Shown: positions 13,152 through 48,489 of the stretch, piece after piece
How the letters are laid out: the number at the start of each line of letters is the position of its first letter
Position numbering within the stretch: position 1 is the first letter of the stretch
Assembly (NCBI GenBank): GCA_030141605.1
Contig: JAQGDQ010000031.1
Location: forward strand, 868,001 to 932,000
DNA: 64,000 nucleotides
Reading direction: 5' to 3'
Origin: Tubiluchus corallicola
Taxonomy: Eukaryota; Animalia; Priapulida
The notes under the pieces: generated by a model
Seen by the model: only the letters and a program-made list of their open reading frames with translations
Told to the model about the DNA's origin: nothing
Database searches by the model: none
Position numbers and translations under genes: made by a program

Positions 13152-14548
13152 CCTTTGACTGATACTGCGGGCACACAGTATCTTTGACTGATACTGCGGG
13201 CACACAGTATCTTTGACTGATACTGCGGGCACACAGTACCTTTGACTGATACTGCAGGCACACAGTACCTTTGACTGATACTGCGGACATGACATACAGT
13301 ACCTTTGACTGCTATTGCGGACACACAGTATCTTTGACTGCTATTGCGGACACACAGTACCTTTGACTGATACTGCAGGCACACAGTACCTCTGATTGAT
13401 ATTGCGGACACACAGTACCTTTGACTGATACTGCAGGCACACAGTACCTTTGACTGATACTGCAGGCACACAGTACCTCTGATTGATATTGCGGACACAC
13501 AGTACCTTTGACTGATACTGCAGGCACATAGTGCCTTTGACTGCTATTGCGGACACACAGTACCTTTGACTGATACTGCAGGCACACAGTACCTTTGACT
13601 GATACTGCAGGCACACAGTACCTTTGACTGATACTGCAGGCACACAGTACCTTTGACTGATACTGCAGGCACACAGTACCTCTGATTGATATTGCGGACA
13701 CACAGTACCTTTGACTGATACTGCAGGCACACAGTACCTCTGATTGATATTGCGGACACACAGTACCTTTGACTGATACTGCAGGCACATAGTACCTTTG
13801 ACTGCTATTGCGGACACACAGTACCTTTGACTGATACTGCAGGCACACAGTACCTTTGACTGATACTGCGGGCACACAGTACCTTTGACTGATACTGCAG
13901 GCACACAGTACCTTTGACTGATACTGCGGACATGACTTGCATTATCATTGACTGATATTGCGGACACACAGTACCTTTGACTGCTATTGCGGACACACAG
14001 TATCTTTGACTGATACTGCGGACACACAGTACCTTTGACTGATACTGCAGGCACACAGTACCTTTGACTGATACTGCGGACACACAGTACCTTTGACTGA
14101 TACTGCGGGCACACAGTACCTTTGACTGATACTGCAGGCACACAGTACCTTTGACTGATACTGCAGGCACACAGTACCTCTGATTGATATTGCGGACACA
14201 CAGTACCTTTGACTGATACTGCAGGCACATAGTACCTTTGACTGCTATTGCGGACACACAGTACCTTTGACTGATACTGCAGGCACACAGTACCTTTGAC
14301 TGATACTGCAGGCACACAGTACCTTTGACTGATATTGCGGGCACACAGTACCTTTGACTGATACTGCAGGCACATAGTACCTTTGACTGCTATTGCGGAC
14401 ACACAGTATCTTTGACTGATACTGCGGGCACACAGTACCTTTGACTGATACTGCAGGCACACAGTACCTTTGACTGATACTGCGGGCACACAGTATCTTT
14501 GACTGCTATTGCGGACACACAGTATATCTTTGACTGATATTGCGGACA
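13152..14548. repeat. 29-bp minisatellite, about 48 copies, consensus CCTTTGACTGATACTGCAGGCACACAGTA
   Basis: Head-to-tail units with a few discrete variants; short interruptions near 13289 and 13931; followed by a short CAGA microsatellite. Confidence 0.97.
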
Positions 14549-15219
14549 TACAGACAGACAGACACGAGGATGCAAATTCCAGTATGCTATTATGATATTG
14601 ATTATATAATGCAGTAACATTGTAGCGTGCAGCCGCCGTTTGTAATCTATATAAACCAAAGTTTATACAGCTACTATAGAGATGCTAAGTGCTTTTAAGT
14701 GTAAATTATGGCGAATATATTCCACGCAGCGCACATCATATTTCTCTCCGTTAGCGCATCCCAGATGATTCATTTGATGAACAGTGAAGTTTCGGCATAA
14801 AAGTGGATTTTTGTGGCTCGACTAAATCCCGGTCGAATCGTTTTCAGCGGTTTCTGCGAAACGTCTCTCAGAGAAGCGCGGAAATCTAATTTGTACGCAG
14901 TTTTGATCATGTGCGGGGAGGAAAGTTCTGAAGGGCAGTTTATCTAAACACAAATGCGTAAAAACAGCTAAGCTAAATAGGCAGCTGGTTTGATGTGTGC
15001 TTTTCTACATGTAATGAAGTTAAGTTCCTTGACCTGATGTCACTAGTTCAATAATAGCACACTGAAACGATCAAGAGTGCATTTAGCCATGCAGGGAGAG
15101 TTGGTCTGAGGGGGGCGTTTGAATGTGACAAATCGAGCAATGCTTTTGATATTCATCTTTTTAATTTAAACACGACTTTATTGGTTTAAATTACAGTTTT
15201 ACTACTTATTAAGTGATTT

Positions 15220-15521: not shown

Positions 15522-16967
15522 AGTTTAAACATAATTTATTTAGGATTGGATCAGACAGTTTGTACAACATGATTTAGGATCCTCACCACAACAGACTTTA
15601 TACATTGTTTACAAGAACATTTACAGTAAGAATAGACTATACTTAGTTTTTAGTATGCTTTAGTATACTAAAGTTTTACTACAGTGATACATTAGACATT
15701 AGTAGAAAATGACGGTTAGTAAATATTAATGTACGATTATTTAAGAACGATGCATTTTATATGAGTTAGAAACTACTGGAAGCGTTTAGTACGTAATATA
15801 AAGTCATGTATACATTGGAATATTTTACAGTTAGTAACATAGTTAAATTCGTCTTTTCCGAATAATAACAACTTCAACAGATCATTTTTCCTAAGGCAGC
15901 TATATTAAGGCTTTCGGGCAGAAGTATTGCATTAAATTTATCAAACATAACTACCATAGCTAGTTGATGCAATGGGCAGGGCAACAAAAAGTGTTCAACA
16001 GACTCAAATCGAAATCCACAGTTACAATTCGGCAATATTGGATTACCGTTATTATCTTTACAGCCTTTAGAGAAAAGGTCATAGTTTAGCTGAGAAAATC
16101 CGATTCTCATGCGCGTATGATGCACTGATATTGGAGCTTTACCAAATGAAAAATGTTTCTTACGCAACGAAAAACTTAAATGAGATTTGAGCTCTTGTTT
16201 GAACTGTGAAATGGATGTAATTTCACGAATGTTCTGTGGTAAGTTGTTCCACATGTTAATGGTCGATATGAAAAACGATTTTTCACAGCTAACAGAACGG
16301 CAATTAAAATTTCTGTATTTAGTACCACTGCGTATATAATAGGGGGTAACTTCGTTTACCTTTGGCGGCAGAATTGCACTTAAATAGTGGGGCACTAAGT
16401 AAGTCATTGATTATTTTGAAAAAAGGACATAGGCGATGATAATGGAAGCGTGTCACTAATTTAGTGTAGCCGCTATCAGACAAGATACTTGCAGGGGAAG
16501 ATCGAAACATATCGCCAGAACAGATTCTAGCAGCAGTTAGCTGAATATTTTCTAACAAACGTATACTGTTTTCACTGCATCCTGACCATACTACGTTACC
16601 ATATTCGATGGCAGGGAGAATAGTCGTAATGAATAATCGTTCACGCGTAGCTCTGGGCATATTAACTGACACGCGTCGAAAGTTGTTTAGCTTTAAAAAT
16701 GCTTTGTCTACCATTTTTGAGACGTGATAGTTCCAATTCAGGTCAGATGTAAGATGGATACCTAAATGTTTGTGAACATTTACAGTTTTCAGTGAGTATT
16801 AGATAAATATAGAGTAGGATATTGAGGAGCATTGGATTTACGGGAGAAAAGCATGACTTCGGTCTTATTAAGATTAAATTTAACCAACCAACGTTTGGCC
16901 CAGTTTTCAATTATTCTAAGATCTGCCTTTAAGCGATTTGCTGTGTGATCAGCATTGACAACAAACC
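15522..16967 (-). mobile_element. Truncated CR1/L2-group LINE (RT C-terminal part, ORF2 tail and 3' UTR), frameshifted
   Basis: Minus-strand translation LKADLRIIENWAKRWLVKFNLNKTEVM, HKHLGIHLTSDLNWNYHV, ILPAIEYGNVVWSGC, LENIQLTAARI, CNCGFRFESVEHFLLPC; AATAAA and tail near 15525-15545. Confidence 0.9.
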
Positions 16968-29343: not shown

Positions 29344-30254
29344 ATGTTCTGTCGAATACCCGGTTGTTTGCAGTTGAAGATGACATGTCGCCGTATCACC
29401 AAACATTTTACCCTCAAGGGGGCAGTAGTGCTTGTGCTTATATTAAGCACAGTGCTGCCAGCGGTGCTGATCTACCAAACATCTCGGAATCGTGTGCCCT
29501 TAGAAGCCACATTCAAATGCAATACCAGTCCGCAGATGTCAACCCGTCCGCCAAACTCTCACCATTCGAATGCCAAACTGAGGGTGGATGCGAAAGTGCT
29601 CGTGTTTACAGAGACTCCACTCTCTTCGCTCGGTCAGGAGATCAAGATGATACTGGAGTGGAATCGTTTCCGCTTTAAGATGGATGTCGCGGGTAAAAGT
29701 TTGCCAGTATTAACTAACTTAGACAAAGGCAGATATGCTGTTATTGTGTTTGAAAACATGGACCATTATTTTAGCTTGAATAAGTGGAATAGAGACTTGT
29801 TAGATAAATATTGCCTAGATTATGATGTAGGTATCCTGTATTTTGCCCCATATCGGGAGCAAACAATTATCGGATCACGACTGCGTGGCTATCCATTATC
29901 TGTATACACGAACGTTCCTATTCGAGATTATGAGCTGAACACATTTTCACAAGTGCTGCGAATTACGCGTGCTGGTGAAGTTCAGCATGGGTCCATTCCC
30001 GAACACGGGAGGTGGACGGTCTTCAAAACTAATCACTCGACATTTGAGCCAGTGGCATTTGCTCGTTCTAAGCACTATGTGGACACTGATGGCACTGAAG
30101 AACTTTTGACTACAGTGTTAGAAGACAAAGGATTCTTCGACGGTGTGCGTAGGATCTTTTTTGGGCAGGGTTTCAAGTTTTGGCTCCATCGCCCAATATT
30201 TCTAGATGCAATTTCTTATTTGTCGCACGGAAAGCTGTCAACACCATTTGTCAG
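29344..30254 (+). CDS. NDST: NDST coding exon 1 (cytoplasmic tail, TM anchor, N-terminal domain); exon probably begins at 29151 with 5' UTR
   Basis: ATG at 29344; hydrophobic [19 protein letters not shown]; [10 protein letters not shown]; acceptor ttttttcag at 29150; donor AG|gtaaga, phase 2. Confidence 0.93.
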
Positions 30255-31897
30255 GTAAGAAAATCCTGCTAAACAGAGACTGACTTTTTGCAAAGGATAT
30301 TACTTTAAAATGAATATTTGTTTCTGTACTGTACTGTAGTTATGAGCTGCCACATTCAAATTTCTGTGACTGGAGCCAACTGGCAATTGGACAAAATTAG
30401 TTATAAAATTTGAAATTGAAAAGTTCAATTGGAAGTTGAAAAGTTCCATGACTTGGTGACTGATATGTGGCATATACTGTAGGTATACAAGAATTTCTCA
30501 TGGTGTATTCAGACTAGCGAGTTTTCTTGTCTAGTTAACTCACCAAAAAACTCTTCAAGTAACTCGCAAGCGTATTCAGTTTAGAGAACAAAACTTGCTG
30601 TGAGCTACTCTCCGAGAGTAAGCGCGAGTTGACAGTCACCGAGGCATTCACACCTGGCAGGAGCTTGCTGGAAATCAACTCGCAGCAACTGTCAGTGAGT
30701 TTAAAATAACTTGCAAATAGTAGCTCGATAGTTCACATTTGCGAGTTTGATGTTAGAGAGAAAAATCGCGACAGAAAACTCACTAGTCTGAACGCGCCAT
30801 TAGTGTACAGTGTTACTATCTTACAGTAAATGTAAGGATGTGCTAAAAATTAATCCTGCATGTAATTGTTTCAGATACATCTTGGTTGATGTAGACGACA
30901 TTTTTGTTGGCGAGAAAGGAGTGAGAATGACCTCCAGTGATGTACGGGTTAGTATCAGTTGGATTCAGAATGCTGCACGATACATACATGTTTTTGGCGA
31001 ATTGATCTTTCTTATTTCGTAAATTTCATTTTTAAATGGAATTTTGATGTCCAAACTGTCAGACATTACAATTACATGTAGACAGTGAATGTTATTTAAA
31101 CTCAGTTAGTATAATTGTAATGCCAAGATTACTATTAAACTAAATTTTAAGATTAGATTTTGATCAATCTAGAAAAATAGGAAATCTGCAAAAGTTGGAA
31201 TACAGTCTGGATTTGAACCAGCGACATTCTACTTATGAGGCATATGCCTTAGATAACTTGGCCACTGTATTTCCCAGTAGTCAAGGTTGTCCAGACTTCA
31301 TCCCTTATGGTTGACAAACCAAATTCAGTAGTTCCATGTAAGCTTTCTCATGTATGTTATTTAATTTTTTACCCCTAAAGCAAAGCTTAGTCAATATTGC
31401 TACCAATGTTTCACAATGCTTGACTGCACAATTTGATGGAAACTAAAAAATTAATTTTGAGATTCCAGACCTAAATTGGTAAATGATTTTTCATTTGCAG
31501 TCCACTCAAATTACCCGAATGTAAGCTATCAGACTTTAGCATTTACGTCACACGGCAATTTTTCTGATATTTTCATCAGTTTATGGCTGATGCTCAATTA
31601 ATTTTCCTCGCTTTCATCATTTCTGCAGCCACAACGTCGTTATCGGCTGTTTTCGTAAACTACATCGACCGGCAAAATGGTTATTGCTTTCGAATGTCCG
31701 TAATTTAAAATGCAGTGGCAATCCGGAAAAGTAATGTTAGAAACTTGGATTAGAATTGCAGAACTGTTAAGCGTGAATAGTTTTTTTGGAATACAGCACA
31801 GCATGCAGAGTGCAATATTTGATTTAATATTGTGATGTGATGCATAGCTGTCTGGGAATATATTTCTAATGTTCAATTACCGCTTTAGTTGAATGGA

Positions 31898-31928
<31 letters not shown>

Positions 31929-34900
31929 GTTTAATATTATTAAACGTGGAATTTGTGATCGTGTTATTTTTTTGTACAGAACATTCTCTTCTTTGTGCAG
32001 GTCCCGGAATATTTTTTAGAGAGTAAAACCCCAAAATTTAAAATGTAAGTGTCCCAGATTTGTAGGCATTATTGCCTCATTGAAAATACTGAGTCTACTA
32101 AATAGAAAAAAGCTTAGATAAAAATTTAGTTGTTCAAACGTTTTAACAGTTAGTTATTCAAAACACTAGTGTTTCTGTGCTTTAGGTAAAACCATCTGGA
32201 AAAGATTGAATAGAATCTTGCATAGCATTGCGTTCAGAATAGGATAATTCACTGGCTCATTAGCGTATGCTAATTAGCGTGCATGTAAATTCATCATGCT
32301 TTTCTTTCTGCTTCCCGATATTAAATAATAACCAGCAATTGATTAATTTCATCTGACAACACAGCCGGCGGTTGTTTGGTAGTTTTTGTTGCCATGGTGA
32401 CGGATTAAAAATTAACCAGGCCTTTGTGGGTTCCCTCCTTGCCTACATTAGGGTTTGCAGTCAGTAAATTAACTTTCAAATTGGCGTTTTGCTGCATTCA
32501 TTTTGAACCCGTGTGCTTTGCTTTTTGTAACATTATCTACTAATTTGGGCAAACGTGTAAAACCACCGAAACATGCTATTTTTTTATATTTCAATTTAAT
32601 GACTGAAACTAATATGAAATTATGCCTCATTTAAAATGAATTACTAAAATAGCCACTTATCCAATAACATTTTTGACAGTATAGCTTAAGTTTCACTAGT
32701 TATCAGTTTCAGTGTTTAGCCATAGCAAATCCTGAAATTCTTAAATTTAAATGAAGAGCTTTCAGGTGTTAGTGAATAATTGACTAGTTATTTTTAAAAA
32801 CATGAACAGCATTGATATTTTTCACATTGTTTGTGTTCATATTTTTCAACCAAACTTTCATTTCCCACTTAAGAAAAGCCTATTAGGCTATTTTTCACTT
32901 TAATACGAGTATTTTTTGCTTCTCTTAAGGCTTTGGTTGACACCCAAGAAAGAATACGCCAGAGAGTTCCCGGTTTCACGTTCAACTTGGGTTTCTCTGG
33001 GAAATATTTTCATGCCGGTACCGAGGAGGAGAATCGAGGAGATGATGAATTAATAGGTAGGATTTGATTTACCAGCGAATTTAACTCATTATTTATTAGG
33101 ATCATCAATTATGATAATATGTTTTGTGATTATAATACAATTCAGAAAATAGGTATAATGAATGTGCTATATAAAAATCATCGTACAGCATTGATTTTAC
33201 TCTGAATATTCAGTTTATTTATGAAAGAATAGTAGGTAAAATTTTACTTCAACAGGGAAGCTAGGTTTGAAAGCCAGTTAATGCTAGACAAGGTGTCTTG
33301 CTTATTTAAACCTACAGCAGAAGACTGGCAACCTGCACAAAATCTGTGCTGCTGCATCGTGTGTCTAAAAACCCTGAAAAAAAGCAGAAGAGCTCTATTT
33401 CAGTTACTCTGGGTTGGTAATTTGGCATGACATTGTAATAAGCCGAGATCTGCATGAATTTTTATTGATCTCCACATCAGCATAAGATTTTACACAAGTC
33501 ATGCCCAGCAGAAGATGAATTTAAATAGTAATTTGAATTAAAAAATTAAGACATGTTAAACTTAATGGTCCCATGAATTACCATATTGTATGTAGATGTA
33601 GGCGTAACGTGAGTCTTTCCTTCTTTGTTTTTGCACATTTTACATTTTTTCAACTTAAAAGCTACAGCTTGCAAATCAATTACTATTTTTCTTTTTTTGA
33701 GGGTATTTAAAAAAATGTTTGGCTCAATCTGCTTGAATGCTTTAAATGTTTAAGCTAACAGTTTTACTAGCTTGTTTAAGTGAGCCCTGTTATATTGCAT
33801 CTAAACTTTAACAGCTGTTCCTTGAATAGTTAAGCTTGGTCATATACTTTCCAGTGTTTACCTTGTACAAAAGCAAATTTTATTGAGTTTTTATTGCTGT
33901 TTTCATTATGGTTTGAGCTGCAAATTGCTCTGTTTATTATAAGTAGCAATTTTCGCAAAGCTGTTACTTTAAGCGTGTGTTCTTATATTGCTTAAGTTAT
34001 GGAGACGAGGTCACGAGGGCTAGCCCACTTAAAACAATATATCAGCATTATGATTAGTTAATATCTCAAGCCAGAATTCGATGTTTTTTAAACATAAATA
34101 ATCATAAACTACAACAATAATGTAGCATTAATTACAACATGTTGCAAAACTGTTGTTGTTGATTGAGCACTCTATTTTTGGATGTTTTTTCAACTTTAAC
34201 ATTTTTGCTAATTTGATACTGCTCATGATTTAGCAAATGGACATTTCACTCAGTTTAACAAATAGACAGCCTGGAAACCTCAACAATTCCTTAATACTTT
34301 TATCATTGATTGCCCAGTTGCCTAAGTATTAGCAGTGCAAAAAATGAAGAGAATTGGTGACAAAGTGATGTTCTCCAAGCCGTAGTACTCGAATACAAAA
34401 TCGGTCAACGGAAAGCGAATGCGAAAAAATCAGGACTGTCGGCAGGGCTGTGGAGTTGGAGGCAGCAGTGCTAAAGGAGTCGGAGTTGCAGTTGTTAAAA
34501 GTTAAGACAGGAGTCAGGAGTCCTGAGTATACTTATTGTTAGAAGAATTGGAATAATCAGTAGAAAATAAACAAACTCAAACTCCAGTTACTTTGGACTT
34601 TGAACGAATTTATGCATAACGTCCCATTTTGGGATGCTTTTGCATTGGTGTCTATGCAGCTAGATTGTTTTTCGAGTATAAGAAGTAGTGACAAAATGAC
34701 ACTATATCTAAATATTGAGAGTGCTACAAACTATTACTTAAAGGCAGGAGTTGGGGTTCCTAAAATTTTACGAGTTGGAGTCGGAGTCAGAGTTGAATCT
34801 AAAATTTTAGGAGCTGGAGTCAGAGTCGGAGTTGGATCTTCTAAAATTCTAGGAGTCGGAGTCAGAGCCAGAGTCAGAAGTTTGATGTACCGACTCCGCA

Positions 34901-37417
34901 GTCCTGACTCGTTGCTTATGAGATGATGATGGATGTAAACGAAAGTCCTTGTTACAAACTTGAGTTCAGTCTTGGCTTTTCACAATTTTTATGTCAGTCA
35001 AGTTTGGTTTTAAAAATATAATAATTTTGAGTTTTTAGCGTAATATTTGGATCTGCTGTTATTTGGATTATTTGGACTATGACATCGTAACAGAGAGAGC
35101 CAGCTAATACATTGACTGTTTGAGTATCATCTGAAGGGTGTAGTTAAGGCGTGATAATAAAAATTCCCTTGACAACTTGCCTTAGTGCCTCTGCTTTAAA
35201 TTCTGGTTCATTTCATTAAGCCTTACTTTAACCAGTCGCAATTATGAGATAATTAAAACTAATTTGTAAACAATACGGAACCTGAACTGCTGGAGGTTTT
35301 TTTACAGATCATAAAGATCACTTCACGTGGTTTCCGCACATGTGGAGTCATTACAAACCCCACTCCCTTGAATCCTCCACCCTCCAAATTCACATGAAGA
35401 AGAATCTGCAGTTTGCACAGGTATTACAGGTGGCAGCACTCTCAGTTAGCTTTTTAGAGCTAAGATAGCTTTGGTGGCAGATATTGGCATAGTTACTTTG
35501 TCAGCATCCAGTATGGTTTTACTAGTTAGCATTGGCGACTTGGCGTTAGGTACGTACTAATTCGAACGTAATTTTTATTTACCAAATATCCACCCTAGAC
35601 TTCGTTGGCCAAGGTAAGTTTATTCGAACTAGATTATGTAGATTTGGTTTTTTCTTTACTCCATTCCGTATTACAGCACTTTATGCTGAAGGAAATGCAT
35701 TAAAGTACAAATTTCTGCATGAGAAGCTTTTAGAAGCCCATTACAATGTAAGTACATATTAATAATTTATAGTTAGTTCCCCAAACAACTAAGCCATTTA
35801 TTGTGTGTGAATTGGCGGCTAGACGTCATGTATGAACTGTTGCAAACCATACAAAGACTAGTTAAGTTAAGTAACTTTGGATAGGGAATGACTGTAAATT
35901 ACTATATTCAAAATATAATTGAACTACTTGGCTTTACTGCTAATTTTTGTAACAACCTTAGATGTGTAATTTATACATTTGTTTCTAGCATGAAAGTGAT
36001 GAAACAGCTTTCACACCGGGTCTAATTTCTGATCACAAAATGAAAAAATATAAAGTTGTTTGCTAACTTTGCTTTCTTGTAATCATTGGCATGCAGTATT
36101 GTTTTTGCTATTCTGCTATTGTGCCAAATACACATGTTAACTGAAATTTTCCATAATGGACATTTAGCCTAACTAATGTAAACAGTGGCTAGAGTTTATT
36201 TGCATCTAACACTCATTACGTGGTTCCAAAATATTAAAGTGCTAATTTATTGCCTTCAGGTCACGATTAAAAATCACAATTTTGTTTTGGAAGAGAATAG
36301 TGCATTTTAATTTTGAGTTCTGGTAAATAATAGAAAAATTCATGCAGTGTTCCCAGAAACCTCAAGGTACTGGGTACAAATCTTGGTTGGCTCACATTTT
36401 TCTCAAAGTCTTCTTCCTAAAATTTGACAATTGATTAATTTTTTCATTTTTTATTTCAAACTAGACTATGCATTTGACTTTTTGTTTCATTGAAATGCAT
36501 TATTTTTTAAGCAAGTTTGGTCAATCAATTTTGTTTATTTTACTTATTAGTTCTTTGAATTGAACTAAAACCAAGTGAATGCTTAGGATCATTTTTTGCA
36601 TTTCCTCAACTAGTAGAAAATATGTTCTGATACTAATTACTAAGTTGTAGCCAAGTTTTGCAGTATGTAGGCACAAGTAAATGTTATAGCTAAAATAGAT
36701 TCTGTTAGTACCTATAAATAATTTTTTTATATAGCAACAACGACACTATAAATAGTACTAGTAATACTGTAATATGTATAACGAGATACGTAAAAGTATC
36801 TATATATATAAGATAGAACAAAAATGCTTTGGGAAGCAAAGATGAAGCATTGAAACTCATGCGACTGTAATTAGCTCTTAAAAGGTAGGTATTTTTACTT
36901 TATTTATATAACTAACCTGGCCTTGTTCCTGTACCATTTCTGGAAAACATCCTTGTCTTTCCTCAAAATCCTTCTACCACAGAAGCACACGAGTTTGCAG
37001 GCAAACTGAACAGCAAAACAATGAAAGAAGAAACAATGACACAATGAAAACAAAGAACCAAATTTGTCTAATTACCATGCCTGTTAATCTTTCCTTGGCA
37101 GCGGTTAGTTATATTTTTTATTTCTCCAATTATTATTAGCACACTCGTCGAAGTTTTCTTGGTTTGGCCACATGTGGAGCCACAGTCAGCCACATCAGAT
37201 CCTTACAAGGGAGAGCTTGGAAAACGAGATGAACTTGAATGTGGCGTTCGCAAAGGTGAGAACATCTCGGCACCTGGGCTTTTATGCCGTTAGATATTCT
37301 TTCACTTCATGTTAGTCGGTTAGCTGGCATAGTTGACTAGATATGATAAGATTCTTTTTCTGCAAGTGTAGTAATAATATTAGCTTGACTATTTCATAAT
37401 AAACATTTGACTTTTAA

Positions 37418-37458
<41 letters not shown>

Positions 37459-40400
37459 TTAGTTATGTGTGATACCTCTTACTCATTTTGAAGTATAACA
37501 TAGAAAAAGTAAATATAATAAATATGCTACATTATTCTACCATTTATTATATTTTTCCAGAATATTTGGATTGTAATGGCTTTCCAGTAACTGATTGTTT
37601 CATTTTTACTTTAAAAATAGCATTACATTACTACATGTATTTTTAAATAATGCATTGATCTACTGGTTATAATTTATGTTATTTTTAATTTAGAAACATA
37701 ACATAAGTGCACAGACAGGATATTCAGTAGCACCACATCATTCTGGCGTGTACCCCGTGCATGAACCGTTGTACGATGCATGGAAGAAGGTAATTAATGG
37801 AGTGAAATTAGTGACATGTGAAAAACAATGCAAGTAACTAAGCCTGGATCATGAGCCAGACTTGCAGTTTATTCCTATTGTTTTGTTATTACTTTCGTTT
37901 CATTTTTTCAGTCTGTTTACTTACGTACTATCTAAAAAGCCAAACAAGGATTTTTTGAACTGCCACATTTTTTGAATGGCTGTAATAGTGTCTCATGTGT
38001 ATGTACTACATTACAGTGCATATTAGGCGTATAAACTTAAGGGAAAAGTGGACATATCTTAAACTGTAGGTCAAAACAATCTAGTCTTTAAAATATTGAA
38101 AGGAACTTGCTATTTTTTCAAGAATGATTTACATGAAGAAATTATTACCACACAAACGTAAGTTCGCATTCGCACTTCTAGTTTTTCGCTGTTGCATGCA
38201 TTGCACCATTCATTAGTTAGATGGGCAGTAGCGCCTGCATTTTGGAAATGCATTGCACAAAAAACGTGCAGTACATCTCAATTCAGATTCAGATGTGTTT
38301 GTTTGTGATGTGCTTTTGTAGTATTATTGGTGTTAAAATGTACATTTTTACAATACTTCAAATTGGGGTAGGCTATGGAAAATCAACTCAGTTTCCTTTA
38401 ATGATCAAGTTTACAAGCTGATGAATGGATATAAATATAAAGATTCGTTTCTTTCGCTTGCAGATTTGGGGTGTGCAAGTGACAAGCACGGAAGAATATC
38501 CTCATCTTCACCCTGCGAGGGCTCGTAGAGGCTTCATACATAGAGGCATTAAGGTGGGGTGATTTTTGCTTTTTTTGAAAGCCTTATGCATGTACTCTTG
38601 GCATTCTGCATAATAGCTTTATGCATTTGTGAGTGATATGAACTAAATTTAGTAATGAAAAGTTAAACAAAGTTTTTCTGTACAAACGAGTAAGAGCCTC
38701 TTAGCTTCATAAGTCTGTAAGAATTTTAGCGAGGCTTCAAGGATGTAGTGGCTGAGTTTCAGTTTCATTATTCTTGTACATTCATCAATGTAATGTTAAC
38801 CCTGCTTAAGAACATCTACGACATTAGTAACGTAGATTAATCACTTTGTATGATGTTCACACTCACTCGCAGTTATAGGTGTAGTTTAATCTACAGCCAA
38901 ATGTAGAAAATGGATATTGAAGTTTAGTGGTAAATACCGCTGTTTTTTGTTTTTAGCATTTTGCTTTTGTACAACGATTTAGCATGCCCTTTCTCGAGTT
39001 TACTGCAATTTACATTATTTATAATGTGTTTTATGTAAAATATTATAGCTGTGTAAAAATAAAAAATTCTCATCACATCTCCCTTGCAGATTCAAAATTC
39101 TTACACTATTTAATTCTTTCCTTACAGTAATATTATTGAGTTCTTTACTCCAGAAAAGTGAAAAGTCTCTGCTTTAGTGTGACGAGCTTCTTTAGCATTC
39201 AGACTTATCTTCCCAACTGATGTTATTGCTTACAGCAGAGCTAATTTGTCTACATTAGTTAGTTAATTACTTACTTACAGGTGTTACCCCGGCAACTATG
39301 TGGATTGTTTACACACACGGTTTTCCTGGATCGGTATCCTGGAGGAAAGCACAAACTACAAGCCAGTATTCACGGTGGTGAACTCTTCCAGACAATACTC
39401 AATAATCCTGTATGTATTATTGATTGCAAAGAGCTGTGAAATGTTTTCATTTTCGAACTCTGGGAATAAATTCTGTCACTGGGAGCTGTTGCGACAAATC
39501 CGCTTACAATGAAAATTTGTCAACTGAAATATTGTTTTTCCGCTTGAAAACGATGACCTTTCAAGAACGAAGGAAACAAGTTGTCATTGTCATACAGGGC
39601 CATCTAGAAAAAATGTTCCCCCATATTAACTGGTGATCCTTCATCCTATTAGAGGCATTTGTAATAGAGAGCCACATCGCAGTGTAGCTGCATTTTTCCT
39701 CCTTCCTAAGAGCTATAAATTTCCCTCCAAGACCCTCGCCAGGTGCCGCTAGAGCATTTTTTTATGCAGCATTGCAGTAGTGAATAAAAGCATAAAATGG
39801 CCAGTTTTGGAGATTTTTTACCTGCCATTCCTAGAGGAATGCTGTGTAGAAAAATGCTTTATCGTTACTTGTTCGGAGTTTTGGAGGGAAATTTATAGCT
39901 CGTTGGAAAGAGGGAAACGATGTTAAATGATAACGTGGACCTTTACAAATGCCTCTACCCAGGATAAAGGTTTACAAGTTTGTTGGGTGTTGGGGCAATG
40001 TTTCTGTGTGGACAAACCTGCAAATCGTTTTTACAGTTGCATAGTTATCCTTCAGTTGTGCTGCATGCTCTGGAAGCAATATTGAGAGTTGAGAAGTAGT
40101 TTTATATTGTGAATTTATAACTGTCTTTCAACTGTGTAATGTTTTCTAGACTCATTTGCCAGGTCATGTTTAAATCATCAATACATTGTGGCAAATTGAA
40201 ACCTAAATCGGTGGATTTTTTTGTTGCATAAATTTCACCTGAAAATAATGTGATGGACGAAAAGTTAGTGCTGTCTTGAACATAGTGACTAACATTGATG
40301 TAAACTGGTGAAACAGCCCCTTTCTTTTATATAAAAATGAATCAGATACATTGAGTGTGTATATTATCTTTGTACTCTGAATGCCACCTTCAGTTTACGT

Positions 40401-43400
40401 CATTTATCATTGTTATTTACTCGATTTTGGGTTTGTTACTAGTACCTTTGTTATTTGTTAAGTAAATTGTTAGTTAACATGTTAGTGCAATGCAAATGTT
40501 AATGTGTTTTTTGATCGAAAAAATACAACAAGTCGCTCTTTACATATTGCTTTTTCTATTAGTCACTACTGCTTTCTTAACATTATTTTATGTTTTTCCT
40601 ATTTCTTCAAACCACTAACCTTCATAGAGCTAAAAAAATACCAAGTTTCTAATTCTGAATGCATTTTAACTGGTTTAATTTGAAAGTTCCATTTTAAACT
40701 GCATATTTAAAGAAATTGCAGGCATTCTTTTTTCTTGCATAGCCACAAAAATGACCTCACTAACCAAGTGAACATAGAAAATAGCGTTAGCCAGTTCTTT
40801 GAGCAAAATGTGCATTGAGGACTGAAGTGACATCTGTGTTACTGTAAAAATACTGATTTTTAAAAAAGCAAAGTTACTCATTACTACATAACACTGGTTG
40901 TAACTGATGTCGTGTAGATGTTTTATGTAGTGGTAAACATGTAAGCTGATTTTTTTCACATACAGATTAACATCTTCATGACACACTTGTCCAACTACGG
41001 CAATGATCGACTCGCTCTTTACACGTTTGAGAACGTCATCAAGTTTACTCAATGCTGGACGAATCTGCAGCTGTTGTCTGAATCTCCTGTTAAGCTAGCT
41101 GATAGATACTTCAGAATGTTTCCAGATGAGGAGGATCCTGTATGGCAGGTGCGTTCAAGAGCAGACCGTAGGTGGGGTATGGACATGTGGGGGTTGATTT
41201 TTTAGTGGGGCAACATCTTATTTCTGATTTAGTATTCGCTCCTGCAGTTGAACTAAAATGGATATCGTAATTTATTAATACTTATTTTATATTCCCTTGC
41301 ATAAAGAAACAACCTTTGTTATTGACGTTGTAACTAATGCAGGTTATTTTTGTTCATGGAGGCCTGAACTATATCCAGAAATTCAATAGAATGTAATGAC
41401 CCTGATGTAGCTGATACTTTTTAATAGTGTTTGTTTATGTTTATGTTTGATATCTTATGTTTTTGCAACTCACATCAATTTCTTTGCACTACTGTAAACA
41501 TTTTTGCAATTTACCGCAGTCCCCAATTTTTTATGTTATCGAATCTTTCTAGTTTTTGAAACATTTTTTTCTCTAAATGTTTTATAGGTGTCACTAACCG
41601 ATATTTTATTTGCAATGTTTATGTCAGTCTTTGTAGTTCTAAAGCCATTTTTAAGCACAAGAGCTTTTAGTGCACCATAAAACACTATTCAGCCTTACTA
41701 AATCCGTAGACCCTTATCTTGTATGCCGATATCTGAGTATCATTAATCATCCACTTCAGTATCTCATCTATCATATCCTTATATTATCCGCCCCCAACTA
41801 ATTTTTGCCATCTTTTTCCTTGCACGTTTTACTTCCTGTTTTACCACCAATATATGAAGTTATGTTACATTTCTTATTGATTTTTAATACCGTGACTGCC
41901 TTCACGTGAGAGGCTTTCATATAGGCTTTTTATTATAGACCAGTTAGTCAATCACTTAGTAACGTTATAAGATTTCAGCTGTTCACGTATGTATTGTTTC
42001 AATTTTCTTTAAATACAGCCAATAAATCAAAGCCATTTATAATGATACCCTTACATGATCTTTGCTGTCAGTATTGTAGCTGTGACATCTGTAATTTATC
42101 TTATAGAATCCCTGTGATGACAAGCGACACCTAGCCATTTGGGCGAAAAACAAGACGTGTACCAGGTTACCCAGGTTTCTTGTGATTGGGCCACAGAAGA
42201 CAGGGACCACAGCACTCTATACATTCCTCTCCATGCATCCTTTGATCTTTAGCAATTTCATAACTCCATCATTTGAGGAAGTGCAGTTCTTCAATGGCAA
42301 TAATTACTATAAAGGCATAGACTGGTAGGTTCCCTCCCCTTCCTCCCCTTTTCTGATACTGCTTAAAGGCACACTTTTGCATAATAGATACTTCATAATA
42401 GGCACATTTTGCAATAATTCTGTTATTAATTAAAGTATTAGTGTTCACACTAGTGGTGGAAAAGTGGTTCATTCTCATAATGAGATACAAATACCGATTT
42501 GATAACCGATTATAATCACTTTTCAAGTACCATATTACTTGATTATACTGCAATGATGATTGTATTTATCGTACGATTTTTGTAAATTTTCCAAAAAAAT
42601 AAGTTGAACATGATCAATTGATAATATAATCGATAGGCATCTACTACTGGAAAAATCATTGAGGATCAGAAACAAAGCCCAAATCGATTTATAATTGATT
42701 TAATTGATTAATCAGACCCAGCACTATTTGACACCAACAAAATTATAATTTGTTTTGCGTTTTACTGAAATGATTAAACATTTAGTTGTGCAAACTTCAA
42801 AAACCAGTGCATTTTGGGAATTTTTAAAGTCAAAGATTATGCCCCCTAAAATAAACATTTCTGTAATCTTTGTTGCAATAGAATTTAATGTTGTCATGTG
42901 ATGTGATGTGCCACACACTAATTATTATTAACCACCTGAACTAGACATTTACTTGTTATAGATATTTGCCGTTTATGCCCAATTATAGAAACTCGGGTCA
43001 TGATAGTGTTATGTCACCTTGTGCAATAAAAAACCTTTTCAGTACATGTGAAGCAAACTGTTTGCTTTTGCTTATTCTTTGGTATAGTAGCAATGGTTTT
43101 TAAGCTAATACATCTGCAAAAATTGTACCTCAAACATTTATAGAATTAATGGATTAATGGGAATATTTCATTTTAAAATGGAATGCTTCTTTAACATCTT
43201 AAAATCCTTGCTAGTGCTATACTGATTTAATCCAACTTTAAATATTTAAAGTTCTTTACCAAGACATATGGCTTCTCCAGTGAAAAGAAATTCATTCTTT
43301 TGGAATTTGTAATAATTGGTAAATTTGAATAATAGTTCATGGGTTGTTAAGCTTCATAAAAGCCTCACGTTTCTTATTGCTGTATATTCATTGAGTGTTT

Positions 43401-46400
43401 TAGTTTTATTTTCAAAAGCCTTATCTCCAAAGTTGTTGGTGCTACACGTGCTGATTACTTTGTACTCAGGTAACAGTGCATTTTTATTTGTTTCTCTTTT
43501 TTTCATTTTCTCCTGTTTTTTACTTTTAACAGGTACATGGACAACTTTCCTTCTCCGCAGATCAACTCAACACCACACATTTATTTGTTTGAGAAAAGCG
43601 CTACATATTTCGATAAAGACATCGTGCCTAGTCGGGCTTACGCATTGTTACCTCATGCTAAGATAATCACAATACTCATCAATCCAGCTAGAAGAGCTTA
43701 CTCTTGGTACCAGGTATGTACATTCAAGTGACTGCAGGTAACGTGCATTGTTTTCATTTTATTGTCATTCATTGCTTATTGTTATTCATGTGGTGCTGTA
43801 CATCTGGCCATCCCAGACTGAGTTAAATGGTAGAGGAAAAACACCTGAAAGCCGAAGTGCACTCAGGTTTCCAGATGTGGTGTAAATGGTGTCTATTGAT
43901 TTGAAAAGTTTGTAGTTTTTTTGCTTAGTGCTGATTAATGTATCTGAAATATTTCTAGTATCAATTTATATCGTTTATTAAATATAGTTGTATGCTAATT
44001 CGTATTCAGTTTTTTATTAAATCACTGACTAGACATGCCAGGCATGTATTAAATTTCTTTAATAATTGTAGGTATTACATAAAAAAATTTCGTTAGGGTT
44101 AGAGTTAGGTCTAGGATTAGGGTTACAAGCAGAACAAGCAGTACTAATTTGTCTATTTTCTGACCAGTATAGCCATTTACCTGTTATACCTGTGTTTTAC
44201 TAGTGATGGTGAAAGTGAAAACATTATACTGCAGCTTCCTACTGCTAGAAAACTTGGGCAATGTGTTGCCAACGTATAAGTATTCAATGTAAAAACAACT
44301 TTTTTCATGCAGTATTTTCTTATTTTGAGTTTTCTGCTTGGAATAGCAATGATTTATTTAACTTATTGCACAGTATTTGTAGTAGCAGGCTGGCAGAAAA
44401 TGTGTTTTTCACTTACTGCACAATAACTGCTAATTCGTCGTCGTTCTGTTCACTTGCATTGTGAATTTCATAGTAAGTTAATATCTGCAGCTGTACAGAT
44501 GTATTGAACAGCTGTAAAGCTGCATTGCTTATCTGATTTAAGTGAGTTTTTTAACTATTTGCCCAGAAAAGAGCGCTGTATAACTTTTAGCAGAAACGGA
44601 CACTAACTGGATTTGGTGAGGGATTTGGATTATCAGAAAAATTTCCTTCGGATTTTTTATAAACATGTGCAGCACTAGAAATCAAATTCTCTTTCAAAAA
44701 ATTACTTTTATCTCTTGTGGCACAAAATGAAGATTATCGATTGTTTTATACACCACTGCCAAAACAATTTGTATGTTAGGAAAGAGTTAATGCAACATTA
44801 CATCAAGTACGATACTTTCTTTCTACAGCACCAAAGAGCTCACAGCGATCCCGTTGCATTAAACAACTCTTTCTACACCATTGTGTCAGCTGATGAAACA
44901 GCATCCAGAGTTGTACGCGATCTTCGCAATCGTTGTCTAGGTCCGGGAATGTACGCACAACATCTAGAACGTTGGCTGGCTTATTATCCACCTCATCAGG
45001 TAAGTAACCTCATAGCTGCTTCTGTCAGTTGAGAATTTAGCTTAAGCTTAGTGTAGTCTGAGTGTAGCTTTGTTTCTGTACCAGCCATAGAATGCCAGTC
45101 AAATTTATTTCAACTTGTTTTGCGGTTCTTTTGTGTTTTCTGTGCTGCACACGTGTGCAGATATTCATCTCCTCGTACACGAGAGAGAAAAACATACATA
45201 AAATTGAATTTTATAGTAGCCACAATACAAGCTGCTATTTTTTTTCAATCACGCGTAACTCGTCATTGGTTGGCTGTCGCATTGCAGTTGCTTAGTGTTT
45301 TATTGAACAACAGTTTTCATGTTAGGCAAACACTTCTTTCTGTTTCGCTAATCAAGCAGTGCTTGTTGTAGAAAAGGTTCCACAAAACAATATTTTTGTT
45401 GTCCGTTTCTGTTTTTTATTTTTTTCTAGCGCACATGGATGCCAAATTTCTTGTTTTCTGTTTAGTGTTTTTCTGGCTTTAGGTTGAGTTACATGGTAAA
45501 AGAATTAATAATTTTGTTTAAACTGTGCCTATTAAAGGGTAGTGTGTGACCATTGCCTCAATTTTAATAGTATGCCTACTACCTGGTAATTGATGAATAA
45601 TTTTTAAATTCTTTTTTGTCTGGTCGTTTGCTTCTTTGATGATTTAATATTTACGCTATTTTGCTTTGGATGTGGAATTATCTCAAAAATAATTGGATAA
45701 CAACAATTTCTATTTGATAGGCACGCACATACATAATTTTCTGCTCTAGGTTTTTGGCACCTGTTGAAAATGTACACTGAAAGTAAAATCATTAATATTA
45801 TTCAAAATAATTATTATAAATTAAATATTTTCACTGAAGCTTTTCGCAGTCAAAGAAATAATGTCGGCAAAGCTAAAAAAGGCATCTGTCACCATACTGT
45901 ACTGTAAAAGGCATAAAATAAACGTTATGATTGAAAGCCTATAGTTTTGCAACATTCATTTTAAGTATTTGTGATATTCTATAGATAATTTCTGTGCTTT
46001 TTTACCAAAGAGAATTGTATATTGCCTATTTTAGTGACGTATTTTTGTTTTTGTAGTTGCTGATTTTGGACGGGGAGCAGTTAAAAGTTAACCCAGTTCG
46101 AAGCATGGAGCGAGTGCAGCGCTTCTTGAAAACCAAGCCATATTTTTCTTATGAGAAATACCTCAAGTATGTATATTAGTATATGAGTAGTAAGTAATAC
46201 TAGCTTTTCCGCCGACAAACCATTTTTTCCAAAAACTAACATTCAGTAGCTAAAGCACCAATTTAGCAGATGTTTAGGAACAGATTATACCTATTCAATC
46301 AATGTGTGTGTTTGTTGTTAATTAATAGGTGTGTGTGTTTTATTGTTAATTACAGGTGTGTGTGTTTTGTTGTTAATTATAGGTATGATCCAAAGAAGGG

Positions 46401-48489
46401 GTTTTACTGTCAGGTGGTACATGATGACCATACAAAATGTCTTGGGCGGAGCAAGGGTCGCATGTATCCGCCCATGGAACAACGTGCAGAAAAATTCTTG
46501 TCTAATTATTATAGGTAATGATACGATATATTGAAGTATACTGAAACGTAAATTACAATATGTTCTGTGATATATTCTGAACTATATGCTAGCTTCCTAG
46601 AAATTTGTAGGGCCTGTATTTATAATAATGACAATAATAATTTCGTTCAGGACTTATTCCAGGTATAACACCTTAAGTAACTCAATACTTATTTCTAAGG
46701 TGGTCCTGATTATTAGTACCCCATGTTACTTCGATAATTCCGTGTGCTTGGTCGAAGAACCAGTGGTACCATTTTTTAAGTCCTTGGTATGACTCGGTTG
46801 GGAGTTGAACCTGCGACCTCCCTGGTGCGAAACGAGCACGCTACCACCGAGCTGTGCCACCCTATACCAAAGACATGAATGTATTTGAATGCAAAGCTTA
46901 AAATAACTGGTAATTCGATGGTTGAACTTTTGTTAGTATAGTTATTTGTAATTCTCAGTTCTCAGAAGATATGGCAAACTGTCTTTAACTGATTTTTTTG
47001 CGTAACTGGTCATAGATCTGCTGTGAATTGCATGCGCTGGTTGTCTGATTGTATTGTACTGCTTACTGGATGAATCAAATGTCATTGTTTAGTGGTATAA
47101 AGTGTTTTGAATGAGTGGGCATCAAAGGAGTTTTGACCAGACAGTTTAGCTAGTGGTAACGTGTCCATTTTCTGTCTGGGAGGTCGTGAGTTTGATACAG
47201 CGGCCGGGCCATACCTAAATCTTTAAAAGTGGTACCTGCTGTTGCTCTGCCTGGTGCATGGTATTTAGGGTAAAAGTGGGGTAATAATAGTCTCTGTTAT
47301 GTAGTTGTAGGTGCTATTTACAACCGGTGATAATAATTCTTCGAGCTAATGTTAATTGGTCACCCAATAGCCATCTTTAAATAAAGATTATTATTATATA
47401 TACAATTAAAAATATTGAAATTACCTCATAATATACACATATAAAATGCCTTGCTCAGAAGTCCGAAAGAAATTTAAATCATTCTTATCCTTGTTGTGGG
47501 CATATTTGAAAAAAATAATATAAGCAGGTGGACAGTGCAAAAGGCATAACAAAACTTCTGCAGTTCACTCAGAAGTTCCACTATTCTAGTTGATTAAATT
47601 TTTCTGTTTAATTGTGTTTATGTGAAAATTAGTCATCGGATTACGTAGCAACAACTTCTGAGTTCTTACATAGTTTTAATCCGTAGATATATATCTTAAA
47701 ATGCATAAGTACTATGTATATTCTAATTGCAGATAAGCATGAAATTCTGCGAGCCTGCGATCATATAGTAGGTGCCGGGTGTGTTACCTAGCTTGTAGAG
47801 CTCAGTTTTAGGTTGTTAGAATAATCCTTCTTTTACATTGTCGGCATTAACTAGCTGAGTTGAAGATTATTGTATTATTATCAGTAATTGGTTTTCTTTG
47901 AATAAGAGGCAATGGGATTTATTAACAGCAAAAAAATGATATTAATAATCTCTCATTTAACGTTTTGGATTGTTTATAGTTGATAATAGTAACCGCAGCT
48001 GCAAGATGTTTGTTCAAACATCTGGGGATAGGCGTTTATATTGCCTGGTAACCGAATTACATCACTTTTGGTCCTAAGTGAGCCCACATAAGTGTGAAGT
48101 GATCACGATTTTAAATTGATTTTACTAATTACACGAGGCTGTCATCAAAATTTTGCTGATGCAATTTTCTAGCATTTTTCTTAAATATTAAAATAAGCTT
48201 AACTTTCCAAGAGCCTTGACTGTGCTTTTAACACATTTTTTTTTACCAATATCCAAAAACTATTATCTATGGTAATGAAGTTACGAATTGACAAGCATAA
48301 GTGTAACAAACAGACAAATGAGCACTTGGATGATGATTTAGTTGTTTGTGTAAGTTGAGTTAGTGTTTCTCAGAAGTTGATTGTTGCTGCATTTATTTCA
48401 GGCCGTACAACATAGCACTTTCAAAGTTGCTGTCACGTCTAGGTGAGCAAAACATGGAATGGCTGGATGAGGAACTAAAGAAGCGGTAG
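29344..48489 (+). CDS. NDST: Bifunctional heparan sulfate N-deacetylase/N-sulfotransferase (NDST/sulfateless), spliced; join(29344..30254,30875..30947,32930..33056,[35308..35420 OR 37140..37255],37694..37789,38464..38553,39281..39409,40966..41148,42107..42324,43533..43713,44829..44999,46057..46166,46383..46514,48402..48489)
   Basis: Manual splicing with GT-AG introns gives a continuous frame of 2622 nt (exon 4a, 873 aa) or 2625 nt (exon 4b, 874 aa). NDST motifs present: type II TM anchor, [83 protein letters not shown] (5'-PSB), RAYSWYQH (3'-PB), KCLGRSKGR. Confidence 0.96.
30501..30799. mobile_element. MITE with about 30-bp TIRs in the intron after coding exon 1 (possibly PIF/Harbinger-like)
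   Basis: tggtgtattcagactagcgagttttcttgt versus acagaaaactcactagtctgaacgcgcca; internal actcgc/gcgagt repeats. Confidence 0.75.
30875..30947 (+). CDS. NDST: NDST coding exon 2 ([25 protein letters not shown]; deacetylase DD motif)
   Basis: tttcag|A acceptor, CGG|gttagt donor; 73 nt, phase 2 to 0. Confidence 0.95.
31203..31268 (-). mobile_element. tRNA-derived SINE head (degenerate)
   Basis: Minus strand reads gtggccaagt (A-box-like) ... ggttcaaatcc (B-box-like); no intact cloverleaf seen. Confidence 0.45.
32930..33056 (+). CDS. NDST: NDST coding exon 3 ([42 protein letters not shown])
   Basis: ctcttaag acceptor, G|gtagga donor; 127 nt, phase 0 to 1. Confidence 0.95.
34443..34906. mobile_element. 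hAT-like MITE with (GGAGTC/GGAGTT)n subterminal repeats
   Basis: TIRs CAGGGCTGTGGAGT / ACTCCGCAGTCCTG; accounts for the GVGV-rich ORF 34600..34926. Confidence 0.8.
35308..35420 (+). CDS. NDST: NDST alternative exon 4a ([38 protein letters not shown])
   Basis: tttttttacag acceptor, CAG|gtatta donor; 113 nt, phase 1 to 0, open frame, HMWSH motif. Confidence 0.9.
37140..37255 (+). CDS. NDST: NDST alternative exon 4b ([39 protein letters not shown])
   Basis: Pyrimidine-rich tract then tattattag acceptor, AAG|gtgaga donor; 116 nt, phase 1 to 0, open frame, HMWSH motif. Confidence 0.9.
37422..37452. repeat. (TA)n microsatellite
   Basis: Direct inspection. Confidence 0.9.
37694..37789 (+). CDS. 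NDST: NDST coding exon 5 ([32 protein letters not shown])
   Basis: aatttag acceptor, AAG|gtaatt donor; 96 nt. Confidence 0.95.
38041..38397 (+). mobile_element. Dispersed non-autonomous DNA transposon, copy 3 (internally deleted)
   Basis: TTAA|GGGAAAAGTG ... CAGTTTCCT|TTAA; both ends align with 27597..28188. Confidence 0.75.
38464..38553 (+). CDS. NDST: NDST coding exon 6 ([30 protein letters not shown])
   Basis: cttgcag acceptor, AAG|gtgggg donor; 90 nt. Confidence 0.95.
39281..39409 (+). CDS. NDST: NDST coding exon 7 ([22 protein letters not shown]...[12 protein letters not shown])
   Basis: cttacag acceptor, CCT|gtatgt donor; 129 nt. Confidence 0.95.
39518..40095. repeat. Long degenerate inverted repeat (foldback/MITE) in the intron between exons 7 and 8
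   Basis: Nested complementary blocks gagctataaatttccctccaa / ttggagggaaatttatagctc (21/21) and tagaggcatttgtaa / ttacaaatgcctcta (15/15); outer limits approximate. Confidence 0.8.
40966..41148 (+). CDS. NDST: NDST coding exon 8 ([21 protein letters not shown]...DPVWQ)
   Basis: catacag acceptor, CAG|gtgcgt donor; 183 nt. Confidence 0.95.
42107..42324 (+). CDS. NDST: NDST coding exon 9 (NPCDDKRH...[12 protein letters not shown]...FEEVQFFNG; sulfotransferase 5'-PSB loop)
   Basis: cttatag acceptor, TG|gtaggt donor; 218 nt, phase 0 to 2. Confidence 0.95.
42451..42726. mobile_element. Degenerate hAT-like MITE
   Basis: Termini TAGTGGTGG / CCAGCACTA; flanks gttcacac / tttgacac (6/8); internal cgatt/aatcg repeats. 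Confidence 0.5.
43533..43713 (+). CDS. NDST: NDST coding exon 10 (YMDNFP...FEKSATYFD...RAYSWYQ)
   Basis: Long pyrimidine tract then aacag, CAG|gtatgt donor; 181 nt, phase 2 to 0. Confidence 0.95.
44829..44999 (+). CDS. NDST: NDST coding exon 11 ([11 protein letters not shown]...[23 protein letters not shown])
   Basis: ttctacag acceptor, CAG|gtaagt donor; 171 nt. Confidence 0.95.
46057..46166 (+). CDS. NDST: NDST coding exon 12 ([24 protein letters not shown]...YLK)
   Basis: tttttgtag acceptor, AA|gtatgt donor; 110 nt, phase 0 to 2. Confidence 0.93.
46383..46514 (+). CDS. NDST: NDST coding exon 13 ([10 protein letters not shown]...[14 protein letters not shown]...)
   Basis: ttatag acceptor (two further in-frame acceptors 27 and 54 nt upstream), AG|gtaatg donor; 132 nt, phase 2 to 2. 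Confidence 0.9.
46620..46858 (-). mobile_element. tRNA-derived SINE with conserved central domain (Meta/MESC-like by recall)
   Basis: Minus strand: agctcggtggtagcg (A box), ggttcaactcc (B box), then gtcataccaaggacttaaaaaatggtac; ATT-type tail. Confidence 0.75.
47143..47398 (+). mobile_element. tRNA-derived SINE, same core type
   Basis: tagctagtggtaac ... gggaggtcgtgagtttgatac ... ccatacctaaatctttaaaagtggtacctgctg ... taaataaagattattattat. Confidence 0.75.
48402..48489 (+). CDS. NDST: NDST terminal coding exon 14 ([29 protein letters not shown])
   Basis: tttatttcag acceptor, TAG at 48487..48489; matches the NDST C-terminal LSKLL...WL.EEL pattern. Confidence 0.92.

Follow-up and report, generated by a model that had tools for sequence, protein, structure and literature searches.

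The window examined here, 64,000 nucleotides (nt) of contig JAQGDQ010000031.1 of the priapulid Tubiluchus corallicola (positions 868,001 to 932,000 of the forward strand), contains a complete NDST gene, encoding an N-deacetylase/N-sulfotransferase of heparan sulfate, in which the exon bearing both metal-binding histidines of the deacetylase is present twice. On balance, and judging from sequence, we favor the explanation that these copies, exons 4a and 4b, derive from an old tandem duplication and are spliced one at a time, which would yield two enzymes identical except around the deacetylase metal site.

The duplicated exon

The gene model, built under the guidance of tblastn with two homologues, has 14 coding exons per isoform between positions 29380 and 48489 of the plus strand, with GT-AG at every junction (Table 1), and is open in both forms (861 amino acids with exon 4a and 862 with exon 4b). 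All three NDST modules lie on one open frame (PF25119 in exon 1, PF12062, and PF00685 in exon 9), and a motif check recovered the DD, His-x3-His, acid-histidine, and GPQK motifs in both isoform models. Contigs of sequencing run X2, which are ∼93 to 98% alike to the window and whose RNA nature is a guess, bridge the exon junctions 8/9, 9/10, and 10/11 at GT-AG; they also extend beyond exon 1 into the letters of exon 2 and beyond exon 13 into those of exon 14. These junctions support the model outside the alternative region; no X2 contig was found on exons 2 to 7 at 90% or 80% likeness, and the contigs are silent on expression either way.

A preliminary description of this DNA had reported two exons of 113 and 116 nt, each running from phase 1 to phase 0 between AG and GT. 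Their coordinates, lengths, phases, ends, and peptides were all recovered, and its estimate of about 16 identical residues in 39 is matched by a count of 16, with 59 of 114 aligned bases identical. A family profile of 209 distinct exon 4 peptides, drawn from 485 proteins, had exactly two matches in the six frames of the window (E values of 5.9e-17 and 1.5e-13), at the places of the two copies and far stronger than chance would give, and no third copy was found there, the next best match having an E value of 4.2. Each copy alone also scores above the Pfam PF12062 cutoff of 25 bits (33.8 and 36.9 bits). The two dead ends read from the frames were confirmed in the full model with canonical sites: inclusion of both copies leads to a first stop at codon 427, inside 4b, and joining exon 3 straight to exon 5 leads to an immediate stop at codon 361. 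A second GT (CAG/gtggca) lies 9 nt below the 4a donor, at 35421 to 35429, and would append three in-frame residues.

Both peptides align to residues 383 to 416 of human NDST1, and the exon spans human residues 379 to 417 (the numbering used below). The histidines of HMWSH, rightly named as metal ligands in the preliminary description, align to human H389 and H393; in the available text of PMC10864358, H389, H393, and D320 bind the metal of human NDST1, D319 is the base, H529 is the acid, and alanine mutants are inactive. In an AlphaFold model of the Tachypleus homologue (50 sequences; mean predicted local distance difference test score [pLDDT], 82), where the exon covers residues 382 to 420, the segment forms the end of a helix, one strand (388 to 391), the histidine loop, and the next helix (405 to 421); a single-sequence fold was unusable (pLDDT, 33). 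The swap would thus spare the metal ligands and change their neighbors (388, 394, 395, and 398) and the following helix. The ligands themselves are the same in the two isoforms, since both copies read HMWSH. Proline versus glycine before the first histidine, put forward as a marker of the two forms, is ordinary variation (P in 56 and G in 30 of the 209 peptides, with P the vertebrate residue). Both copies lack the N401 glycosylation sequon of human NDST1.

Constraint on both copies

Synonymous sites are saturated between 4a and 4b (proportion of synonymous differences, 0.97), and the proportion of nonsynonymous differences is 0.38. Fourteen columns are conserved in at least 203 of the 209 peptides, and all 14 are kept by both copies; 22 of the remaining 24 aligned columns differ between them, 14 of these at positions 398 to 417, beyond the metal loop. 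When neutral drift was simulated at 0.1 substitutions per site, all 14 residues and the open frame survived in 510 (4a) and 538 (4b) of 20,000 runs (∼2.6%), and at 0.2 substitutions per site they survived in 15 and 25 (∼0.1%). Both copies are therefore under coding constraint and neither is long dead, although recent silencing is still compatible with the simulation.

Recurrence in other animals

The same segment is exchanged in annotated isoforms of other species. An isoform survey covered members of 30 protein clusters, with up to 15 members listed per cluster, and yielded 18 same-species isoform sets for comparison; among the members listed, exon 4 is the sole region of difference in 4 of these sets: those of Tachypleus tridentatus (XP_076368390/XP_076368391), Limulus polyphemus (XP_022240002/XP_013772898), Lingula anatina (XP_013416453/XP_013416455), and Lineus longissimus (XP_064625713/XP_064625741). 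Each pair is identical outside a 39-residue segment, with the first difference at residue 1 or 2 of the window exon and the last inside it (38 to 39 residues). Compared across the two horseshoe crab genera, one copy matches at 37 and the other at 38 of 39 residues, and the two copies share 24 of 39 with each other. Position 388, 392, or 394 differs between the copies in all four species. As represented in these sequences, the exon 4 swap recurs in three phyla besides that of the window animal. The earlier proposal that one gene gives two active-site variants thus gains support as to the segment swapped and loses the notion that this is peculiar to one animal, and the view of the pair as tandem duplicated exons made for mutually exclusive use agrees with the frames, the constraint, and the same swap in these four species' models.

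None of 328 database proteins has two full exon 4 motifs, and one has a partial repeat; a word-based, and hence weak, search for longer proteins with the 4a frame gave no candidate. Two further observations on NDST emerged from the survey. Isoform X2 of Pomacea and isoform X3 of Homarus both lack the same 61 residues, equivalent to window exon 8 (183 nt, phase 0 to 0, FMTH), a recurrent in-frame skip that would delete the deacetylase acid histidine. Limulus and Centruroides have at least two NDST genes each, so that the rule of one invertebrate gene fails in these chelicerates.

Splicing control

Known mechanisms of mutually exclusive splicing include Dscam-like pairing of docking site and selector, steric exclusion, and U12/U2 incompatibility. 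Steric exclusion is ruled out by the 1,719-nt intron between the copies, in which the nearest branch-point-like site is 56 nt above 4b, and U12/U2 incompatibility is ruled out by the donors (gtagga, gtatta, and gtgaga), none of which is of the minor class. The 4a acceptor is T rich, with a branch-point-like site at −49. The same 10-mer occurs 65 to 70 nt below both donors (35485 to 35494 and 37325 to 37334) and nowhere else in the window, a coincidence reached by chance in 160 of 3,000 trials (∼5%), and it is a possible candidate for a protein-binding splicing element. No wobble complement that could serve as its docking partner was found in 33057 to 37693, the best common duplex reached −15.8 kcal/mol against a background of −14.7 kcal/mol, and the search for inverted repeats gave no convincing long-range pair. 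The motifs that we take to be of the Rbfox and Quaking types were not enriched. Because of the reading frames, the simplest account may be regulated competition between 4a and 4b, with frame-shifted products removed by nonsense-mediated decay, an established pathway.

Proposed explanation and alternatives

In the explanation that we favor, each mRNA very probably takes one copy, and transcripts with both or neither, whose early stops lie a long way upstream of the final junction, would be lost to nonsense-mediated decay. According to the model of the horseshoe crab homologue, the exchanged exon would supply a single strand of the barrel together with the His-x3-His loop and the helix after it, with the ligands fixed and positions 388, 394, 395, and 398 varying. 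We are inclined to think that this swap would alter the deacetylation rate or substrate preference, and that regulation of which exon is taken would determine, for each tissue or stage, how dense the N-sulfated domains are. Mammalian NDST paralogues differ in deacetylase and sulfotransferase activity, as described in the available text of PMC9132247. Vertebrate sequences keep the 388-397 stretch nearly constant, so the invertebrate exons vary the very positions that vertebrate paralogues scarcely change and would be a separate route to diversity, with no direct precedent for the effect.

Several observations weigh against this explanation. The earlier statement that only one-of-two transcripts are productive holds with canonical sites. 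If used, however, a cryptic AG that ends at 37108 (31 nt above the acceptor of 4b) would link 4a to 4b in frame and free of stops. Searches for repeats, motifs, and duplexes found no cis element enforcing exclusion. Five of the 14 near-invariant columns were preset by the pattern that selected the peptides; 4a has K at one further conserved column, the fifteenth, where 201 of 209 peptides have Q395, and it also departs from L411 (185 of 209), with a K that is seen four times in 209. Everything is kept in 47% of runs after neutral drift of 0.02 and in 15% after 0.05, so a recent silencing passes. Among the members listed, 14 of 18 isoform sets have one exon 4 version only (those of tick, snail, decapods, Daphnia, damselfly, mayfly, and bed bug), absence from an annotation not being absence from a genome. 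Support for the use of both copies comes from automated, uncommented RefSeq models of other species; such isoform models are normally based on transcript alignments. The analogy with vertebrate paralogues drawn in the preliminary description is not directly supported: a single decapeptide occupies 388 to 397 in 61 of 66 vertebrate sequences, and the differences in paralogue activity known so far arise elsewhere.

The copies might be used one at a time and yet give catalytically similar enzymes, with the pair serving some other role, such as contacts made by the helix with a partner or within a dimer, stability, or control of dose through unproductive splicing upon a switch of exon choice. This would fit the identity of all ligands and of the 14 near-invariant residues in 4a and 4b, and the placement of 14 of the 22 differing positions after the metal loop (398 to 417), in the part where human NDST1 has its N401 glycosylation site. 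Through competition within enzyme complexes, moreover, an inactive splice form in humans changes heparan sulfate (available text of PMC9132247). We regard this alternative as unlikely, although the strongest of those considered, because differences also lie right beside the ligands (388, 394, and 395), and position 388, 392, or 394 differs between the copies in four other species, where vertebrate paralogues are nearly fixed.

Use of 4b only, with 4a once functional and now recently silent or at trace level, is improbable in our judgment. Exon 4a has the lower family score (39.3 versus 50.2 bits) and residues that are rare or unseen: the contrast of YK with SQ after the second histidine, noted earlier, is indeed unusual (Y394 in none and K395 in 7 of the 209 peptides), and 4a also has K411 as well as S398 and H408, found once each. 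Recent silencing also passes the neutral simulation, and many lineages show one version. However, 4a has intact AG and GT, the T-rich acceptor with its branch-point-like site, an open frame, and all 14 near-invariant residues, and four other species have models for both copies. An assembly or haplotype artifact, in which two alleles or paralogues of one exon stand in tandem, is scarcely credible and had already been thought unlikely. Nothing was found in its favor: the copies share only 59 of 114 bases with synonymous sites saturated, their flanks are not significantly alike (a score as high was reached by 6 of 132 control pairs), a second significant match is lacking for every other exon, and the same segment is swapped in four other species.

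Origin of the pair

The window gene groups with that of Priapulus caudatus over exons 1 to 3 (support, 100/99); in that tree the pair nests among arthropods, and the Priapulus branch is long and of odd composition. The Priapulus record stops short of exon 4. A full-length tree made in quick mode, from which Priapulus and also Stegodyphus (lacking exons 5 and 6) are absent, places the window gene outside the arthropod clade. Placement near Priapulus is a lead.

Exon 4b is nearer to one copy of each other lineage (24, 22, and 20 identities) than to 4a (16), and the 4b-like copies share E408 and the serine between the histidines, which hints at one old duplication. The exon-only tree (39 columns) was mostly unresolved, and same-species pairs as clades were not rejected (approximately unbiased test P value [p-AU], 0.22 to 0.32). 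When 13 fixed topologies were compared, the likelihood was highest for four independent duplications; three of eight single-origin topologies were rejected, the best of them having a p-AU of 0.38, and none of four two-origin topologies was rejected. The 39 columns are thus compatible with one ancient origin and with repeated duplication, and for homologous exon substitutions there is good documentation that the same exon can be duplicated convergently (available text of PMC9741552). A bolder scenario, which we hold only tentatively and consider rather doubtful, is that a single duplication in the protostome ancestor gave two NDST enzymes from one gene, as a splicing equivalent of the vertebrate paralogues. 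Horseshoe crabs, brachiopods, nemerteans, and the priapulid-like animal would have kept both, whereas the fly and other models, on which the notion of a single invertebrate NDST was based, would have gone down to one copy, and the two forms would write different N-sulfation patterns.

Comparison with known systems

Human NDST1 (PDB 8CCY, 8CD0, 8CHS, and 9F6Z; Mycroft-West et al. 2024, PMC10864358) is the same three-domain enzyme, with DD, His-x3-His, acid histidine, and GPQK. It differs in that the available text of that paper mentions no alternative copy of the segment, and vertebrates diversify via four paralogues. The RefSeq X1/X2 pairs have the same swap of 38 to 39 residues, and one horseshoe crab copy opens with the same six residues as 4b, but between the histidines, where S is found in both copies of the window, one of their copies has G, Q, or R. 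Substitutions of tandem duplicated exons (236 human events in the available text of PMC9741552) likewise have similar length and phase and keep core residues; homologous exon substitutions are described there as ancient, tissue specific, and often convergent. The main text of that paper does not mention NDST, and in the window, by contrast, the exchanged region includes the metal ligands for catalysis in a glycan enzyme of the Golgi. Human NDST1B, as presented in the available text of PMC9132247, is shorter (825 amino acids), enzymatically dead, and dominant negative, with no exon duplication or swap; in that case alternative splicing of NDST changes heparan sulfate structure. The splicing class is therefore known, and NDST isoforms are already in RefSeq, uncommented. 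No paper on an NDST exon swap was found in the literature searched, subscription journals and databases of mutually exclusive exons being outside its scope.

Other features of the gene and window

Three tandem 27-nt copies just upstream of exon 13 (46303 to 46384) each end in AG (46328, 46355, and 46382), and use of the upper two would insert 18 or 9 in-frame residues, without a stop, into the sulfotransferase domain. Intron 3 contains a GGAGTC-rich repeat array with an inverted end (34440 to 34910), and intron 5 contains a high-copy element (∼38056 to 38265; depth of 5,262 in run X1). Elsewhere, a 29-nt minisatellite of ∼48 copies (13152 to 14553) creates long repetitive minus-strand open frames, and two overlapping minus-strand frames at 15874 to 16798 may correspond to the C-terminal part of a non-LTR retrotransposon reverse transcriptase.

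Table 1. Coding exons of the NDST gene and the intron between the two copies of exon 4 (window positions)
Feature	Position	Strand	Description	Support
Exon 1	29380..30254	+	First coding exon; start codon, hydrophobic N-terminal stretch, N-terminal domain	PF25119, 257.6 bits; X2 contigs
Exon 2	30875..30947	+	DVDDIF, two catalytic aspartates (human D319, D320)	Gene model; roles from available text of PMC10864358
Exon 3	32930..33056	+	Constitutive; ends in phase 1	Gene model
Exon 4a	35308..35420	+	113 nt; alternative copy, HMWSH (human H389, H393); more divergent; Y394, K395, one-residue deletion	
Intron between copies	35421..37139	+	1,719 nt; cryptic AG at 37108	Sequence
Exon 4b	37140..37255	+	116 nt; alternative copy, HMWSH; 24/39 residues identical to one horseshoe crab copy	
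Exon 5	37694..37789	+	Constitutive; starts in phase 0	Gene model
Exon 6	38464..38553	+		tblastn, gene model
Exon 7	39281..39409	+	LPRQLC motif	tblastn, gene model
Exon 8	40966..41148	+	FMTH motif, probable counterpart of human H529	Gene model; X2 contig junction to exon 9
Exon 9	42107..42324	+	Sulfotransferase domain begins; GPQKTGT	PF00685; X2 junctions
Exon 10	43533..43713	+		Gene model; X2 junctions
Exon 11	44829..44999	+		Gene model; X2 junction
Exon 12	46057..46166	+		tblastn, gene model
Exon 13	46383..46514	+		tblastn, gene model; X2 contig continues into exon 14 letters
Exon 14	48402..48489	+	Last coding exon; stop codon	Gene model

Implications

NDST sets the N-sulfation sites of heparan sulfate and so directs later modifications, and according to one published view, animals before the vertebrates managed with a single NDST enzyme (available text of PMC4359090). 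Should the exons be used in the way their sequence suggests, a single gene would yield two variants of the deacetylase active site in at least four phyla, and it would be informative whether this goes back to a single very old duplication or to the same exon having been duplicated repeatedly. Natural swaps confined to the surroundings of the metal site would offer a clean test of the residues that set the rate and pattern of deacetylation, and may be of use for enzymatic heparin synthesis.
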